64,000 bases of DNA from Betaproteobacteria bacterium (GCA_032128415.1 JAQBGW010000096.1:2592-66591), one strand, 5' to 3'. Counted from the first letter of the stretch, positions 1,318-44,360 are shown. Notes: generated by a model from the letters alone, not told the origin. Translations and numbers: made by a program.

Positions 1318-1403
1318 TGCGGAGTGCAATGTGCAAAATGCAAGATGAACTGCGCACGGCGTGTGGTTTTGATTTTGCACTTTGCACTCTGCACTCCGCA
1401 CTG
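1318..1403. repeat. palindromic heptad-array element, copy 1 of 3
   Basis: The left arm TGCGGAGTGCAATGTGCAAAATGCAAG and right arm TTTTGCACTTTGCACTCTGCACTCCGCAC are imperfect reverse complements. Each arm is a run of GTGCA(A/G)(A/T) heptads. Related copies lie at 25341-25442 and 47287-47400. Confidence 0.8.
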
Positions 1404-1408
1404 TCCTC

Positions 1409-3136
1409 ATGAGCCTTACCATCCACGGCATCGGTGTATCCGGCGGCATCGCCATCGGTCATGCGCATCTGATCTCGCACACGCAACTTGAGGTTTCGCA
1501 TTACGAAGTGCCGGCGCGGCAAGTTTCGGCAGAAATGGCGCGCTTCGATGCGGCGGTGCAAACCGTGCGCAGTGAGCTTGAACATTTGCGCACCGTGGTT
1601 CCTGCAGGTGCGCCCGCAGAACTCGGCGCCTTCATCGATCTGCACCAGATGATCCTCAACGACTCGACGTTGTCCGAAACGCCGCGGTCCATCATCGCTG
1701 CTGAAAACTGCAATGCGGAGTGGGCGCTGAAAATACAGACCGATGAACTGCTCACGCAGTTTGACGCCATTGAGGACGCCTATTTACGCGAACGCCGCAC
1801 CGATGTGATCCAGGTTGCGCAACGCGTCATGAAGGTGCTGCTGGGACAACCAGGCCATGCGCCGCCGCCCGCCGGTCCGGAGGACCAGAATCTGGTGTTG
1901 GTTGCGCATGATTTGTCACCCGCAGACGTGGTGCTGTTCAAGCAGCACCGTTTTGCCAGCTTCATCACCGATCTCGGCGGCGCGACATCGCACACCGCCA
2001 TTGTTGCGCGCAGCCTGAACATCCCCTGCATTGTGGCCCTGCATCACGCGCGGCAACTGGTGAGCGAGAATGAAATCATCATTGTCGACGGCACTCAGGG
2101 CGTAGTCATCATTGATCCCGACCCGCAGGTGCTCGCCGAGTACCAGTTGCGACAGCGCGCGTTCGGCCTTGAGCGCCAAAAACTCAAGCGACTGCGCGAC
2201 ACACAGGCGCAGACGCTGGACGGGATTGACATCGAACTCCATGCCAACATCGAATTACCGGGCGACGTTGCGCTGGCAGTGGATAGTGGCGCCACCGGCA
2301 TCGGCCTGTTCCGCACTGAGTTCCTGTTTCTCAATCGTCAGGACTTGCCGGACGAGGACGAGCAGTTTGAAGCCTACCGCAAGGTCATGGAGGAAATGGG
2401 CGGTCGGCCCGTGACTATCCGCACTTACGATCTGGGCGCTGATAAACAGACCGACGACACCGTGCGCCTCGCACCGAACCCTGCACTGGGCCTGCGTGCG
2501 ATCCGTCTGTGCCTGACGGAGCCCAAGCGTTTCGTCACGCAGTTGCGTGCCATGTTGCGTGCATCTCACTACGGCAAAATGAAAATTCTGATTCCGATGT
2601 TGATGAACGCTACAGAAATCGACCAGGCCTTGCTGTTAGTCGAGCACGCCAAACGCAGTCTCGACGACGACGGAATTCCCTATGACCGGCAGGTGCCCGT
2701 CGGCGGCATGGTCGAAATTCCCGCCGCAGCCCTGGCCCTGGGACTGCTGACCAAGCGCCTCGATTTTCTGTCGGTAGGCACCAATGACTTGATCCAGTAC
2801 CTGCTGGCGGTGGATCGCACCGACGATACCGTAGCGCATCTCTACGACCCACTTCATCCAGCAGTACTGACCTTGCTGGCGCACATATTTACTACAGCCG
2901 GCAAGGCACGTATCCCCGTCGCCGTTTGCGGCGAAATGGCGGGCGACGTTAAGCTGACCCGCCTGCTGCTGGCACTCGGGTTGCGCCAGTTTTCGATGCA
3001 TTCCACCCACCTGCTCGACGTCAAGCAGCGCGTGCTCCAGACCAGCCTCGCCGAGTCACAGCTCATCGGCAGGAAAATGTTGCGGGCGACCGACCCCGGC
3101 AAGCTCCGCACCATGCTCGATCGTCTGAATGCTTGA
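1409..3136 (+). CDS. ptsI: phosphoenolpyruvate-protein phosphotransferase (PTS enzyme I)
   Basis: 575 aa from the ATG at 1409 (MSLTIHGIGVSGGIAIG). It has the phospho-His region GGATSHTAIVARSL and the PEP-utilizer C-terminal domain (GTNDLIQY, CGEMAG). The track start at 1382 is a TTG inside the repeat element. Confidence 0.93.
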   Translation: MSLTIHGIGVSGGIAIGHAHLISHTQLEVSHYEVPARQVSAEMARFDAAVQTVRSELEHLRTVVPAGAPAELGAFIDLHQMILNDSTLSETPRSIIAAENCNAEWALKIQTDELLTQFDAIEDAYLRERRTDVIQVAQRVMKVLLGQPGHAPPPAGPEDQNLVLVAHDLSPADVVLFKQHRFASFITDLGGATSHTAIVARSLNIPCIVALHHARQLVSENEIIIVDGTQGVVIIDPDPQVLAEYQLRQRAFGLERQKLKRLRDTQAQTLDGIDIELHANIELPGDVALAVDSGATGIGLFRTEFLFLNRQDLPDEDEQFEAYRKVMEEMGGRPVTIRTYDLGADKQTDDTVRLAPNPALGLRAIRLCLTEPKRFVTQLRAMLRASHYGKMKILIPMLMNATEIDQALLLVEHAKRSLDDDGIPYDRQVPVGGMVEIPAAALALGLLTKRLDFLSVGTNDLIQYLLAVDRTDDTVAHLYDPLHPAVLTLLAHIFTTAGKARIPVAVCGEMAGDVKLTRLLLALGLRQFSMHSTHLLDVKQRVLQTSLAESQLIGRKMLRATDPGKLRTMLDRLNA

Positions 3137-3208
3137 ACGTGCCTGAATGTTTGAACGTACTTAAACGCCTGACCGCCTGTCACGTGCCTGGGGTCGTTTA
3201 CTGCACAT

Positions 3209-3237
3209 TTGACAATTCCCGGCCCGCCGGGTAACGT
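3209..3237 (+). promoter_or_regulatory. candidate sigma70 promoter for metX-metW
   Basis: It has TTGACA (3209-3214), a 17-nt spacer and TAACGT (3232-3237). It is the only good -35 hexamer in the 228-nt ptsI-metX spacer. Confidence 0.4.
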
Positions 3238-3252
3238 AAGCCACTGTTTCTT

Positions 3253-3300
3253 CGCGCCGATTTGAGATCAGCTTGCGGGCGCGTAATAAATCCGGCTAAA
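3253..3300 (+). promoter_or_regulatory. structured metX leader: hairpin plus tail able to form a pseudoknot (candidate SAM-responsive element, class unconfirmed)
   Basis: CGCGCC (3253-3258) pairs perfectly with GGCGCG (3278-3283). The loop contains GAUUU and AGCUUG. The 3' tail AAAUCCGGCU can pair with the loop GAUUU or, alternatively, with the terminator 5' arm. Confidence 0.3.
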
Positions 3301-3319
3301 GAGATGTATGAATTCTCGT

Positions 3320-3351
3320 AACCCCGGAGCGCAGGCTTTCGGGGTTTTTTT
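3320..3351 (+). terminator. intrinsic terminator/attenuator abutting the metX start
   Basis: AACCCCGGAGC-GCAG-GCUUUCGGGGUU forms about 11 bp with one bulge and a GCAG loop. A run of 7 T follows, and an ATG comes immediately after it. Confidence 0.7.
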
Positions 3352-3364
3352 ATGGCTATTACTT

Positions 3365-4522
3365 ATGGCTATTACTGATACCACACCGCAAGCGCGATCC
3401 GTCGGCGCCATTACGCCACAGACCGCGCGCTTCAACGCTCCGTTGCCGCTGCGCAGCGGTGCGGTTCTGCGCGACTACGAACTGGTGTTTGAAACCTACG
3501 GCACGCTTAACGCCGAACGCTCCAACGCTGTGCTGGTCTGCCACGCGCTCAACGCCTCGCATCATGTCGCCGGCACCCATGCCGGTGACCCCGACAACGT
3601 GGGTTGGTGGGACAACATGATAGGCCCCGGCAAACCACTGGACACGAATCGTTACTTCGTCATCGGTGTGAACAATATCGGCGGATGCCACGGCTCTACC
3701 GGGCCACTCAGCGTTAATCCTGATACCGGCAAAATCTGGGGCGGCGACTTTCCAGTGGTCACCGTCGAAGACTGGGTGGATGCGCAGGCGCGACTGGCCG
3801 ATCACCTCGGCATCACCCAGTTTGCCGCCGTCATGGGCGGCAGCCTCGGCGCCATGCAGGCCTTGTGCTGGGCCATCCGTTATCCGCAACGACTGCGCCA
3901 CAGCATCGTTATTGCCTGCGCTCCGAATTTGTCGGCGCAAAACATCGCCTTCAACGAGGTCGCGCGGCAGGCCATAGCCGCCGATCCGGACTTTCACGGC
4001 GGCAACTATCTCGAACAAGGTACTGCACCCAAGCGCGGGCTGCGGGTGGCGCGCATGATCGGCCACATTACCTATTTGTCTGACGACGAGATGGCGAGCA
4101 AATTTGGACGCCAGTTGAAAAACGGCAAACTCAATTACACCTTCGACAGCGAGTTCCAGATCGAATCGTATCTGCGCCATCAGGGCAACAAGTTTGCAGA
4201 TTACTTCGACGCCAACACTTACCTGCGTATCACCAAGGCGCTCGACTACTTCGATCCGGCATTCGAGAACGGCGGCAATTTGACGCTGGCGCTGGCGCCG
4301 GTGCGGGCCGGCGTGCTGGTCGTCTCGTTCACCACTGACTGGCGCTTCTCGTCCGAGCGTTCGCGCGAAATCGTGCATGCGCTGCTCGACAATCGGGCGC
4401 GCGTTTCCTATGCGGAAATTGATGCGCCGCACGGACATGACGCGTTCCTGCTCGAAGATGCGCGCTACCACCGATTGGTTGCCGCGTATTTCGACCGCAT
4501 TCATGCGGAGGTGGCGCCGTGA
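3365..4522 (+). CDS. metX: homoserine O-acyltransferase MetX (acetyl- or succinyl-transferase cannot be told by eye)
   Basis: 385 aa from the ATG at 3365 ([19 protein letters not shown]...). It is an alpha/beta hydrolase with the nucleophile elbow [10 protein letters not shown]. metW follows. The track start at 3308 would put the terminator inside the CDS. Confidence 0.9.
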
Positions 4523-5115
4523 CCATCCGCAATGATGCACAACGTCCTGATTTCGCCGCCATCGCGCAGTGGGTGCAACCGGGTGCACATGTGCTTGATC
4601 TGGGCTGCGGTGATGGCACGCTGCTGAAATATCTGCGGCAGGCGCGCAAAGTTACCGGCTATGGCGTTGAGATCGACGATCGTAATGTACTGGCCTGCGT
4701 AAACAACGGGATTGATGTCATCCAGAGTGACCTGGAGCGCGGTCTCTCGGAATTCGCCGACGGCTCATTCGATTATGTGATTCTGTCGCAGACCCTGCAG
4801 GCCATGCGCAACACCGAGCGCATCGTTCGCGAAATGCTCCGCGTCGGGCGCGCGGGTATCGTCACTTTCCCGAACTTCGGTTACTGGAAAAACCGCTTTC
4901 AGGTATTGCGCGGACAAATGCCGGTATCAGACTCGCTGCCCTTCGAGTGGTTCGACACGCCGAACGTACATCTGTGCACCGTCGCCGACTTTGAGCAATT
5001 CTGCGCGCAGCGCGGCATCCGCATCGTCGAGCGCACCGTCCTCACTGCCGGCCGTCCGGTGCTGGCATGGCCGAACCTGCTGGGCGAACTCGCCGTCTAT
5101 CACTTCGGCGTCTGA
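4519..5115 (+). CDS. metW: methionine biosynthesis protein MetW
   Basis: 198 aa with the SAM-MTase-like motif [12 protein letters not shown]. Its GTG start overlaps the metX stop (GTGA). metX-metW is the canonical pair. Confidence 0.9.
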
Positions 5116-26391: not shown

Positions 26392-27558
26392 ATGAGTAAT
26401 TACCTCTTCACCTCGGAATCCGTTTCCGAAGGGCATCCCGACAAAATCGCCGACCAGATTTCGGACGCCGTACTCGATGCCATTCTCACCGAAGACAAAA
26501 ATGGCCGCGTCGCTGCTGAAACGCTGACCCACACCGGCCTGGTCGTACTTGCCGGTCAGGTCACCACCAGTGCGCGCGTGGATTACGCACAGGTCGCGCG
26601 CAGGATCATCAAACAGATCGGCTACGTCGACTCCGACATCGGTTTCGATTACAAAAGCTGCGGCGTACTGGTGTGTTACGACCAGCAATCACCTGACATC
26701 GCGCAGGGTGTGGACGAAGGCAAGGGGCTCGATCTCGATCAGGGCGCCGGCGACCAGGGCCTGATGTTCGGATTTGCCTGCGATGAAACGCCGCAACTGA
26801 TGCCGATGCCGATCTACTACGCGCATCGCCTGATGGAACGCCATGCCGAGCTGCGCCGCGACGGCCGTCTGCCGTGGGCGCGCCCCGACGCCAAATCGCA
26901 GGTTTCCGTGCGTTATGTTGACGGCAAGCCGCATCACATCGACACCGTGGTGATCTCGACCCAGCATCGCGAAGAAGTTACCCACAAGCAAATCGAAGAA
27001 GCCATCATTGAGCAGGTAGTGAAGCCGGTGCTGCCGAAAAACCTGATTACCAAGGACACCAAATACCTGATCAACCCGACCGGCCGTTTCGTCATCGGCG
27101 GCCCGCAGGGCGACACCGGACTCACCGGCCGCAAGATCATTGTCGATACCTATGGCGGCTATTCGCGTCACGGCGGCGGCGCATTCTCCGGCAAGGATCC
27201 GTCAAAAGTCGATCGTTCGGCTGCTTACGCCGCACGCCATGTGGCGAAGAATATCGTCGCCGCTGGCCTCGCCACCAAATGCGAAATCCAGGTTGCCTAC
27301 GCCATCGGCGTAGCGCGCCCGGTCAGCGTACTGGTCGACACCTTCGGCACCGGAAAAATTTCGGACGAAAAAATTGCCGCGCTGGTTGATAAACATTTTG
27401 ATCTGCGGCCAAAAGGCATCATCCTGGCGCTTGATCTGCTGCGGCCGATCTACACTAAAACCGCCGCGCATGGCCACTTCGGTCGCGACGAGCCGGAGTT
27501 CACCTGGGAAAATACTGACAAGGCCGCTGCACTCAAAGCGGATGCGGGCATAAAATAA
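26392..27558 (+). CDS. metK: S-adenosylmethionine synthetase
   Basis: 388 aa with [24 protein letters not shown] and GGGAFSGKD. Confidence 0.97.
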
Positions 27559-27574
27559 CGGTATAATCCGCCCC

Positions 27575-27652
27575 GCTGAGGAGCGTTGCGACCGGTGGGG
27601 TTTTGAGTAGTTACCCATCACCGGCCAGGCTCAGCAAGATTCAACGGCGCTC
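27575..27652 (+). promoter_or_regulatory. SAH riboswitch aptamer, copy 1
   Basis: CUGAGGAGCGUUGCGACC...CCGGCCAGGCUCAGCAAGAUUCAACGGCGCUC matches the conserved core of the ahcY-leader (SAH) riboswitch as I remember it. A TATAAT hexamer sits at 27562-27567, just upstream. Confidence 0.8.
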
Positions 27653-27683
27653 GCATCGGCAACGGTGCGGGCGCTTTTCTTTT
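27647..27683 (+). terminator. intrinsic terminator forming the expression platform of SAH aptamer 1
   Basis: GCGCUCGCA (27647-27655) pairs with UGCGGGCGC (27666-27674) with one G-U pair, followed by UUUUCUUUU. The 5' arm overlaps the aptamer 3' strand. Confidence 0.7.
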
Positions 27684-27716
27684 GTAATTGCGGTTTGTAA
27701 TTTTGATATGCGTGCT

Positions 27717-27798
27717 CCCGAGAGGCGCTGCGACCGGGCGGGGTTTTACCACCCCTTTCACCGGCCAGGCTCGGACAGCATTGCTGATAACGGCGCCC
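27717..27798 (+). promoter_or_regulatory. SAH riboswitch aptamer, copy 2
   Basis: CCGAGAGGCGCUGCGACC...CCGGCCAGGCUCGGACAGCAUUGCUGAUAACGGCGCCC has the same core as copy 1, with compensatory changes in two helices. It ends 10 nt before the ahcY SD AGGAG (27808-27812). Confidence 0.8.
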
Positions 27799-27820
27799 CA
27801 ATTTTTCAGGAGTAGCAGAT

Positions 27821-29224
27821 ATGAACGCAAAAGCCGCCGACTACAAAGTCGCCGATATCAAGCTGGCCGATTTCGGCCGCAAGGAAATTGCCATTGCCGA
27901 GACCGAAATGCCCGGCCTGATCGCATTGCGCGAGGAATTCAAAGGCAAAAAACCGCTGAAGGGCGCGCGCATTGCCGGCTCGCTGCACATGACCATCCAG
28001 ACCGCCGTGCTGATTGAGACACTGGCTGAACTCGGCGCCGACATCCGCTGGGCGTCGTGCAACATTTTCTCGACGCAGGATCACGCTGCGGCGGCCATTG
28101 CCGCGCGCGGCATTCCCGTGTTTGCCTACAAGGGCGAAACGCTGGAGGACTACTGGGACTACACCCACCGCATTTTCGAGTGGAATGACGGCGGCACGCC
28201 AAACATGATTCTCGACGACGGCGGCGACGCCACGCTGCTGATCACGCTGGGGGCACAGCACGAGCGCAACAAGACGCAGCCGCCTCAAGGCACCAACGAG
28301 GAAGAAGTGGTGTTGTTCGCCGCGATGCGCAAGACGCTGAAGGAGAGGCCCGGCTTCTACTCGAAAATCGAGGCGAACATCAAAGGCGTCACCGAAGAGA
28401 CCACCACTGGCGTACACCGCCTGTACCAGATGGAAAAAGAAGGGCGCCTGCCGTTCCCCGCGATCAACGTCAACGATTCGGTTACCAAGTCCAAGTTCGA
28501 CAATCTCTACGGTTGCCGCGAGTCACTGGTCGACGCCATCAAGCGTGCCACCGACGTGATGATTGCCGGCAAGGTTGCGTTGGTATGTGGCTACGGCGAC
28601 GTCGGCAAAGGCAGCGCGGAGGCGTTGCGCGCATTGTCGGCGCAAGTGTGGGTTACCGAGATCGACCCGATCTGCGCGCTACAAGCGGCGATGGAAGGCT
28701 TCCGCGTGGTAACCATGGATTACGCTGCCGACAAAGCCGACATCTTCGTGACCTGCACCGGCAACCTCGGCGTGATCACGCACGAGCACATGAAGCGCAT
28801 GAAGCACAACGCCATTGTCTGCAACATCGGGCACTTTGATTCAGAGATTGAAATCGCTGCGCTCAAGCAATACAAGTGGGACAACATCAAGCCACAAGTT
28901 GACCACGTGATTTTCCCCGACGGCAAGCGCCTGATCATCCTCGCCGAAGGCCGTCTGGTGAACCTCGGTTGCGGCACCGGTCATCCGTCGTTCGTGATGT
29001 CAAATTCCTTCACCAACCAGACGCTGGCGCAACTCGAGCTCTACACGCAGGGCGAAAAATACAAAAACAAGGTCTATGTGCTACCCAAACATCTCGATGA
29101 AAAAGTCGCGCGCCTGCACCTGAAAAAACTCGGCGTTGAACTGACGACGCTCAACGAGAAACAGTGCGACTATCTACAATTGAATGTCGACGGCCCGTTC
29201 AAGCCGGAGCATTATCGCTACTGA
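27821..29224 (+). CDS. ahcY: adenosylhomocysteinase
   Basis: 467 aa with [16 protein letters not shown], an NAD-binding GYGDVGKG motif and a C-terminal HYRY. Confidence 0.97.
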
Positions 29225-43698: not shown

Positions 43699-44360
43699 AG
43701 GCTGTATTTTTTTCCGCTGTGCTGCTGCTGGCTGCTTGCGCCGCCGGGCCGATACCGCCTGAATGGCAATCGCAATCTCACGCGGCAATGGAAAGATTCA
43801 GGCAGCAGTATCTTGATGGCAGTTCCAGGCTTGCGGAACGCAGTTTTGCGGAAGCGAAAGCGGCGGTCGCGTCAACTGGCAGGCCCGCGCTTTTGGCGCG
43901 AGTGCAGCTGGTGCGCTGCGCGCTTGCGACAGCGGCACTGGACTTCGATACGTGCGCAGACTTCGACACCTTGCGTGACGATGCGACGGAGGACGATCGG
44001 GTTTTTCGATCGTTTCTGAATGGTCAGTGGCAGAGCCGGGACTTGAACAGACTGCCGACGCAGTATCGAAATGTTGTGTCTGCGCGCGACGAAGCCGCGC
44101 GCAACAAGTCCATGCAACAGATAGAAGATCCTGTTTCACGTCTGGTTGCGGCCGGAGTCTTGTTCCGCCTTGCGCAGTTATCCCCGGACGGGCTTGCGGC
44201 TGCTATTGAATCGGCTTCAGCGCAAGGCTATCGCCGACCACTTCTGGCCTATCTAAACGTTCAGGCTACCCGTGCGGAAGCGGCTGGTGATACCGAAGCC
44301 CTGAAATCGATTCAAAAACGCATCAATCTGGTTTATCAATCGCTGCCAAAAACTAACTAG
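43695..44360 (+). CDS. lipoprotein of unknown family, translationally coupled to the MCE gene
   Basis: The GTG start overlaps the MCE stop (GTGA). It has the lipobox VLLLAAC and a mostly helical Ala/Leu/Arg-rich body. I recognise no family. Confidence 0.55.
   Translation: MKAVFFSAVLLLAACAAGPIPPEWQSQSHAAMERFRQQYLDGSSRLAERSFAEAKAAVASTGRPALLARVQLVRCALATAALDFDTCADFDTLRDDATEDDRVFRSFLNGQWQSRDLNRLPTQYRNVVSARDEAARNKSMQQIEDPVSRLVAAGVLFRLAQLSPDGLAAAIESASAQGYRRPLLAYLNVQATRAEAAGDTEALKSIQKRINLVYQSLPKTN

Follow-up and report, generated by a model that had tools for sequence, protein, structure and literature searches.

S-adenosylmethionine (SAM)-II riboswitches have been known since 2005, when Corbino et al. 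defined the class as the metA motif, with a Bordetella bronchiseptica example and a layout in which a promoter lies a few nucleotides (nt) ahead of helix P1 and is followed by P1, P2, and a terminator; such elements were covered again by Barrick and Breaker in 2007. Most SAM-II riboswitches are transcriptional according to Huang and Lilley, whose account of SAM-II and SAM-V also describes the binding architecture: U's of the loop in U:A.U triples, a SAM adenine held by the U of GCUAAAG, two GC pairs adjacent to P1, and pairing between the 3' half of the loop and the GCUAAAG tail. Leyn et al. (2014, PLoS One) found SAM-II (RF00521), under the name SAM_alpha, only in two alpha-proteobacterial orders and described a 'novel metXZ element' in beta-proteobacteria. 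Here, we analyzed a 64,000-nt window, the whole stretch of DNA under study, from a Betaproteobacteria bacterium (GCA_032128415.1, JAQBGW010000096.1:2592-66591), in which the leader of the methionine genes metX and metW very probably contains a SAM-II riboswitch controlling metXW by premature transcription termination. The element is of an already known kind, an ordinary member of its class.

A scan of the whole window, on both strands, against Rfam 15 returned RF00521 at 3244-3320 on the plus strand, with 38.7 bits against a gathering threshold of 36 (E = 3.5e-5) and an alignment spanning model positions 1-79 of 79. The consensus letters GAUUUGA, GCUUGC, and GCUAAAGAG are all matched by the window. 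An initial annotation of this region had listed a promoter TTGACA-17-TAACGT, a hairpin CGCGCC/GGCGCG with a GAUUU loop (3253-3283), and a terminator whose T-run ends at the first ATG; all three are found where it had placed them, within a 228-nt spacer between ptsI and metX that also holds the tail following the hairpin. The hairpin is a perfect 6-bp P1, its loop contains GAUUUG and AGCUUGCG, and the tail reads UAAUAAAUCCGGCUAAAG (3284-3301). The resemblance to SAM-II that the annotation had remarked on is borne out by the above-threshold match. It had also reported the 3' motif as absent and considered a variant or a different class; however, GCUAAAG is present at 3295-3301, as part of GCUAAAGAG at 3295-3303, the SAM-II 3' motif in a form identical to the Rfam consensus, and no other class is needed. 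Of the three Rfam families it had proposed for comparison, only RF00521 was matched, whereas neither SAM-V (RF01826) nor SAM/S-adenosylhomocysteine (SAM/SAH, RF01727) gave a match at E <= 10 in 3100-3450.

Relatives were collected by a protein-guided scan with one genome per species, yielding 80 beta-proteobacterial metX loci (84% identity at best), mostly from uncultured Burkholderiales. A regular expression for the core of the element recovered 49 of these loci and a looser pattern 70. Using the 46 leaders without insertions, we built an alignment (A1) and from it a covariance model, by which 70 of the 80 loci have the element ahead of metX, one more has a partial match, and the window has a single strong match (81 bits). 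Extra hairpins, inserted in L3 or the P1 loop, occur in roughly one-third of the leaders. The pocket nucleotides GAUUU, CUUGC, and GCUAAAG, all present in the window, are invariant or nearly so in the 46 aligned relatives, and GAUUUG in L1 is invariant, in agreement with the RF00521 consensus. The leader alignment, which the annotation had called for as a check on covariation, shows that both P1 and the outer part of P2 covary. P1 is paired in 98% of cells (44 distinct sequences), and its end pairs vary as CG 23/AU 14/UG 2 and CG 38/UA 4/UG 2. Within P2, no variation is seen in the core pairs C3276-G3295, G3275-C3296, U3274-A3298, and U3273-A3299, which are pairable in every case, and the outer pairs C3269-G3303, U3268-A3304, and A3267-U3305 covary (82% paired; UA 28/CG 9 and UA 9/AU 8/UG 8/GU 4/CG 2). 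Overall, 89% of cells are paired, compared with 41-60% when the partners are slid, and the observed covariation score was reached by none of 500 shuffles. In minimum free energy, the whole leader does not stand out from shuffles (z = -0.32); the signal thus comes from comparison rather than from thermodynamics. A candidate second SAM-II copy at 44079-44127 (12.3 bits, E = 0.3) lies within an open reading frame (ORF), lacks the motifs, and was dismissed as noise.

The pseudoknot seen here differs from that of the initial annotation, which had paired GAUUU with AAAUC: the true pseudoknot joins loop 3267-3276 with 3295-3305, and the loop U's would instead form the third strand of a triplex, as expected from the structures of SAM-V and of SAM-II. 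Pairing of GAUUU with AAAUC is possible in 94% of cells, in invariant columns with no change on both sides, and would at best be a ligand-free alternative. When it is extended to CCGAUUU/AAAU-CGG, much as Leyn et al. drew it, one pair covaries weakly. By analogy with U47 of SAM-V, U3297 would be the partner of the SAM adenine, and the leader presumably binds SAM.

The terminator is GC-rich, has seven T's ending at ATG 3352, and reaches -16.2 kcal/mol (RNAfold). By strict criteria, 55 of 71 leaders have a hairpin with a T-run in the interval from aptamer to metX, several more having weaker U-runs, and in the closest relatives the metX ATG directly follows the U-run. The ligand-OFF logic by termination that the initial annotation had envisaged is supported, and the antiterminator pairing it had drawn, UCCGG with CCGGA, appears in the minimum-energy fold of the nascent transcript, together with an inner helix. 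This antiterminator uses the 3' strand of P2 plus half of the terminator 5' arm. When the transcript is cut ahead of the terminator 3' arm, the minimum-energy fold consists of P1 and the antiterminator; when the full leader is folded with the pseudoknot residues blocked, it consists of P1 and the terminator. In the window, the duplex between the tail and the 5' arm has an energy of -12.6 kcal/mol compared with -7.1 kcal/mol for shuffled sequences (z = -2.5), and it beats the shuffles in 42 of 55 loci, with z from -1.3 to -2.5 in the closest clade. Across the relatives, most pairing partners of the 5' arm fall at tail positions -3 to 0 and +6 to +13, counted from the G of GCUAAAG. The UCUC box plus extensions is conserved within the closest clade, and the inner helix varies with the spacer: some loci have GAGA/UCUC, L010-L012 have GAGAAAAC/GUUUUUUC, and L020 has AGAGA/UCUCU. 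In other clades, the terminator 5' arm or the sequence next to it holds a UUUAGC box that complements GCUAAA. From these folds and complementarities, we infer that these are the alternative pairings by which the switch works.

On the upstream side, a consensus promoter scan rejects 3209-3237, whose -10 hexamer matches TATAAT at three of six positions. The pattern TTGACA-N17-TAnnnT occurs once in the window against 0.17 expected occurrences, and the promoter is conserved: the closest relatives carry TTGACA-N17-TAACGT or TAAGGT at the same distance from P1, and TTGAC is found at most 62 nt from P1 in 43 of 71 leaders. The -10 variants of the relatives (TAACGT, TAAGGT, TATTCT) stand at a fixed distance from P1, and other clades have GCTATACT instead. 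Transcription would start near 3244, about 9 nt upstream of P1, and the window agrees with the published SAM-II layout in the placement of its promoter. Over 3140-3400, the leader of the window differs from that of three of four near-identical assemblies at a single position, A3243G, right at this putative transcription start.

A further complementarity links the apex of the terminator to the 5' strand of P2. The 8-bp duplex between the apex box and P2 5' strand residues 3270-3277 has an energy of -13.5 kcal/mol in the window, compared with -6.2 kcal/mol for shuffled sequences (z = -3.4); in the relatives, the mean z is -1.94, and z falls below -2 in 28 of 55 loci. The background consisted of 83 terminator-like hairpins located elsewhere in the same sequences. 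The median apex duplex energy is -10.8 kcal/mol for leader terminators and -6.3 kcal/mol for the others (Mann-Whitney p = 2.5e-8), and 45% of the former compared with 2.4% of the latter lie at or below -12 kcal/mol. With terminators clustered at 70% identity, 12 of 28 clusters reach -10 kcal/mol or lower, compared with 6% in the background. The notion that the apex box is a mere GNRA tetraloop was rejected, since the box is rare among other terminators of these genomes (4 of 83, compared with 20 of 55 leader terminators) and the loop in the window, GCAG, is not GNRA. This terminator-apex complementarity may be the sole previously undescribed element here.

As a plausible mechanism, transcription would start from TTGACA-17-TAACGT, and the aptamer (about 3253-3305) would form when the tail GCUAAAGAGAU (3295-3305) pairs with loop 3267-3276, giving the H-type pseudoknot P2, with U's 3261-3263 lying in the P2 groove as a triplex that holds SAM. 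When SAM is bound, the tail would be locked in P2, the terminator would fold, and RNA polymerase would halt just ahead of the start codon. In the SAM-free state, the tail would find its partners in the UCUC box and in CCGGA of the terminator 5' arm, forming the antiterminator and allowing read-through into metXW, and the freed loop strand AGCUUGCG would probably pair with the terminator apex CGCAGGCU, a fully Watson-Crick helix that we term P2'. Predicted energies are -10.1 kcal/mol for P1, -10.4 for the antiterminator, -13.5 for P2', and -16.2 for the terminator. The antiterminator and P2' together exceed the terminator in energy; only with both ligand-free helices would it be outweighed, and SAM, by locking P2, would block both. 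Such a leader would explain the shut-off of metXW at high SAM. The 4-nt overlap between metW and metX implies that the two genes are co-transcribed and, therefore, co-regulated.

The regulated reading frame itself required some clarification, as the initial annotation had left its start at either 3365 or 3352. ATG 3352 is the first ATG, yet its frame differs from that of metX, and it opens an 8-codon ORF (MAITYGYY*) ending at 3378; judged by reading frame, the metX start is ATG 3365, and 3352 cannot serve. The two ATGs arise from a 13-nt tandem duplication that includes the metX start codon and is found in four independent near-identical assemblies (L081-L084, 99.9% identity to the window). 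The nearest species (L001-L004) are without the duplication, and their ATG directly follows the U-run. ATG 3352 keeps good spacing (5 nt) from the GGGGU run at 3342-3346, while the metX ATG 3365 lies inside the 8-codon ORF, 18 nt from this sole Shine-Dalgarno (SD)-like run. Public gene calls (L081-L086) start metX at ATG 3308, just past the aptamer, and run through the terminator to give a 404-amino-acid (aa) product. A protein look-up of the 385-aa MetX starting at 3365 gave no record, as gene callers use the 404-aa ORF. The public start at 3308 is probably a mis-annotation.

Several observations weigh against the transcriptional SAM-II assignment or against parts of the mechanism. The RF00521 score exceeds gathering by just 2.7 bits, and of 20 diverse relatives only 3 attain that threshold, which puts the clade as a whole at the margin of the curated model. 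The invariant P2 core supplies no covariation evidence in this set. The excess of tail/arm pairing over shuffles is modest among the relatives (mean z = -0.73), and the antiterminator alone is weak beside the terminator. At loci where the P2 5' strand has A for C, the apex shows no compensatory change, and the C probe pairs better in 10 of 14; after this negative covariation test at the C/A position, the apex pairing stands as a hypothesis. The literature also gives reason for caution, since the termination mechanisms of SAM-II were 'not yet experimentally established' in 2007, and S. meliloti is the only case reported to have been studied in vivo. Finally, the duplication distances the metX ATG from the SD-like run, and expression in this strain may have an extra layer.

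These points bear on how the leader might otherwise be understood. Control that acts mainly or additionally on translation is unlikely, although it has precedents in the best-studied SAM-II riboswitch, that of Sargasso Sea metX, which is translational with a ribosome-binding site inside P2, and in S. meliloti metA, where the aptamer is followed by an SD sequence with AUG1, a terminator, and an in-frame AUG2 that is used. Two routes could be imagined. The terminator hairpin in read-through mRNA could mask GGGGU, and in the closest relatives, where the ATG abuts the U-run, a ribosome-binding site is possible only in the terminator 3' arm. Alternatively, as in S. meliloti metA, AAAGAG could load a ribosome for AUG 3304 or AUG 3308, both of which follow it in the window, with SAM hiding AAAGAG in P2; AUG 3308 is in frame with metX across the terminator. 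However, an ATG lies at most 14 nt after GCUAAA in only 19 of 71 leaders, and neither the frames nor the lengths nor the peptides are conserved; a post-aptamer leader peptide or alternative start was rejected on these grounds, the peptides being unrelated. What is conserved is a strong terminator followed by a U-run, which favors transcription as the primary level of control.

A distinct beta-proteobacterial class, the 'metXZ element', merely SAM-II-like, with its own fold between GAUUUG and the tail and possibly another ligand, is very improbable. In its favor, Leyn et al. saw SAM_alpha only in Rhizobiales and Rhodobacterales and described the new element with alternative folds (regions 2 and 6; 5 with 1-2), most relatives fall below Rfam gathering, and the helix CCGAUUU/AAAU-CGG is 96% pairable with one pair varying as CG 28/UA 4. 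That helix, however, rests almost entirely on invariant columns, whereas the SAM-II pseudoknot register covaries, every conserved SAM-II pocket nucleotide is present, and the window, L001, L020, and L028 exceed RF00521 gathering. The alignment of Leyn et al. (Fig. S2; Burkholderia, Ralstonia, Bordetella, Comamonadaceae) includes BB4554 of B. bronchiseptica, a species already in the original SAM-II alignment. Their element, located ahead of metXW or metZ, reads GCGCCGAUUUG ... GCUUGCGGGCGC ... AAAUNCGGCUAAAG and then continues into a terminator, and the window carries all six of its regions in order (GCGCC, GAUUUG, GCUUGC, GGGCGC, AAAU, GCUAAAG). Judged by these sequences, the 2014 'metXZ element' is the same SAM-II RNA, for which our data give the SAM-II pseudoknot rather than the pairings then proposed. 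The discrepancy arose because so few relatives reach Rfam gathering and because two Paraburkholderia leaders, L051 and L055, have no Rfam match at E <= 0.01; these two have a hairpin inserted between P1 and the tail and retain every core nucleotide despite it. Most beta-proteobacterial metX leaders, lying at the edge of the Rfam SAM-II model, are thus missed by routine annotation.

It is still less credible that the hairpin at 3320-3351 merely terminates the ptsI operon and that the remainder is chance resemblance. The PTS (phosphotransferase system) cluster of the window (EIIA gene, HPr gene, ptsI) lies upstream of metX and metW, no other terminator-like site occurs from the ptsI stop at 3136 to 3351, and ptsI transcripts probably end at 3320-3351 or read into the leader. 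Nevertheless, the hairpin lies 184 nt past the ptsI stop, downstream of a conserved promoter and of an aptamer with the Rfam E-value of 3.5e-5, and aptamer and terminator stay with metX where the relatives' upstream region differs, as also in the 34 leaders of Leyn et al., so that the initial annotation was right to assign the terminator to the metX leader. Equally remote is a functional RNA on the minus strand, such as a small RNA (sRNA) like RF02424 (Bp2_287, a predicted Burkholderia sRNA), which matches 3222-3349 (-) weakly in a local search (27.6 bits, E = 1.8e-4). This score is far under the RF02424 gathering of 70, no T-run follows the hairpin on that strand, and the reverse complement of the RF02424 consensus, GAUUUGAU..GCuUGCGGACGC...GCUAAA plus a terminator, is SAM-II-like; the family thus more probably represents this same leader read in antisense. 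RF02424 may derive from a SAM-II leader of Burkholderia taken from the opposite strand, which the two Paraburkholderia leaders do not confirm, as an Rfam search gave no RF02424 match in them.

Table 1 Features of the metX leader, its neighboring genes, and the tandem SAH aptamers. Positions are those of the window, except for the loci with L numbers.
Feature	Position	Strand	Basis
Promoter: -35 TTGACA 3209-3214, 17-nt spacer, -10 TAACGT 3232-3237	3209-3237	+	Sequence, conservation
P1 5' strand, CGCGCC	3253-3258	+	Rfam alignment, covariation
L1, GAUUUGAG; U3261-3263 expected third (Hoogsteen) strand of SAM triplex	3259-3266	+	Role inferred from SAM-V/SAM-II structure
P2 (pseudoknot) 5' strand, AUCAGCUUGCG; 3' half of P1 loop	3267-3277	+	Covariation, invariant core
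P1 3' strand, GGCGCG	3278-3283	+	Rfam alignment, covariation
L3, UAAUAAAUCCG, A-rich linker; 3' end UCCG part of antiterminator strand	3284-3294	+	Rfam alignment, relatives, fold
P2 3' strand, GCUAAAGAGAU; includes SAM-II signature GCUAAAG	3295-3305	+	Rfam alignment, covariation
Antiterminator: UCCGG 3291-3295/CCGGA 3324-3328 plus GAGA 3301-3304/UCUC 3314-3317	3291-3328	+	Predicted ligand-free fold
Intrinsic terminator: stem 3320-3346 (AACCCCGGAGC/GCAG/GCUUUCGGGGUU), 10 pairs; U-run to 3351	3320-3351	+	Sequence, RNAfold
Apex box, CGCAGGCU, complementary to AGCUUGCG 3270-3277 (P2 5' strand); candidate pseudoknot P2'	3330-3337	+	Duplex energy, enrichment
13-nt tandem duplication, ATGGCTATTACTT/ATGGCTATTACTG; includes metX start codon	3352-3377	+	Sequence
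ptsI, last gene of PTS cluster	1382-3136	+	
metX, homoserine O-succinyltransferase type, regulated gene	3365-4522	+	NF047916, 656 bits vs cut-off 560
metW	4519-5115	+	TIGR02081, 273 bits
Two SAH aptamers (RF01057)	27572-27659, 27714-27805	+	59 and 40.3 bits, gathering 37
Other tandem SAH locus, L099	490-559, 592-671		Two RF01057 matches
Other tandem SAH locus, L160	451-536, 566-652		Two RF01057 matches
Other tandem SAH locus, L161	450-532, 562-655		Two RF01057 matches

Elsewhere in the window, two SAH aptamers stand in tandem between metK (26392-27558) and ahcY (27821-29224), ahead of ahcY-metF. A terminator (27646-27675) with a T-run shares sequence with the 3' strand of the first aptamer, and AGGAG and the ahcY ATG come after the second; from its layout, the pair looks as if it controlled transcription first and translation next. 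In a 2022 survey of tandem riboswitches (PMC9481103, Table 3), SAH is counted with the classes for which no tandem arrangement has been found. Two aptamers above gathering also occur in 3 of 80 metagenomic ahcY loci, and the closest relatives have one. In a separate and unrelated observation, the Ramlibacter metX locus L064 also has nearby matches, at 697-840 and 4335-4391, to the manganese riboswitch (RF00080, 67 bits) and to chrB-b RNA (RF03086, 53 bits).

Set beside the described systems, the metX leader shares with SAM-II (RF00521) the P1 helix, the H-type pseudoknot, the motifs GAUUU, GCUUGC, and GCUAAAG, the promoter before P1, the terminator, and the methionine genes. Compared with the alpha-proteobacterial SAM-II consensus, its outer P2 has 3 bp (AUC/GAU) in place of a GC-rich 4-5 bp, and its relatives often have extra hairpins in L3 or the loop, most of them scoring below the RF00521 threshold. 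Of the S. meliloti metZ and metA riboswitches (Scheuer et al. 2022), metA resembles the window in the succession of aptamer, SD-like sequence with AUG, terminator, and in-frame start; however, the post-aptamer AUG is not conserved among the relatives of the window, and whereas no antiterminator was predictable for S. meliloti metA, one is evident here in the predicted fold. With Sargasso Sea metX SAM-II (2QWY) and with SAM-V, the window has in common the pocket nucleotides, the triplex architecture, and metX, but those riboswitches are translational, with the ribosome-binding site in P2, and the window has a separate terminator platform. How a SAM-II aptamer communicates with its terminator has hardly been studied, and for this step the closest likeness to the proposed P2' is found in guanidine-IV (mepA), where, according to a 2024 review, a pseudoknot with the terminal loop of the terminator destabilizes the terminator. 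There, the ligand promotes the loop-loop pairing (ON), whereas in the window, where the pairing is predicted from complementarity, the ligand would compete with it (OFF). It is conceivable, though we consider it doubtful, that the metX leader works by a previously undescribed two-armed strand swap, in which both P2 strands exchange partners with the terminator, as an OFF-switch counterpart of guanidine-IV; the apex complementarity makes this a hypothesis that can be tested by mutation.

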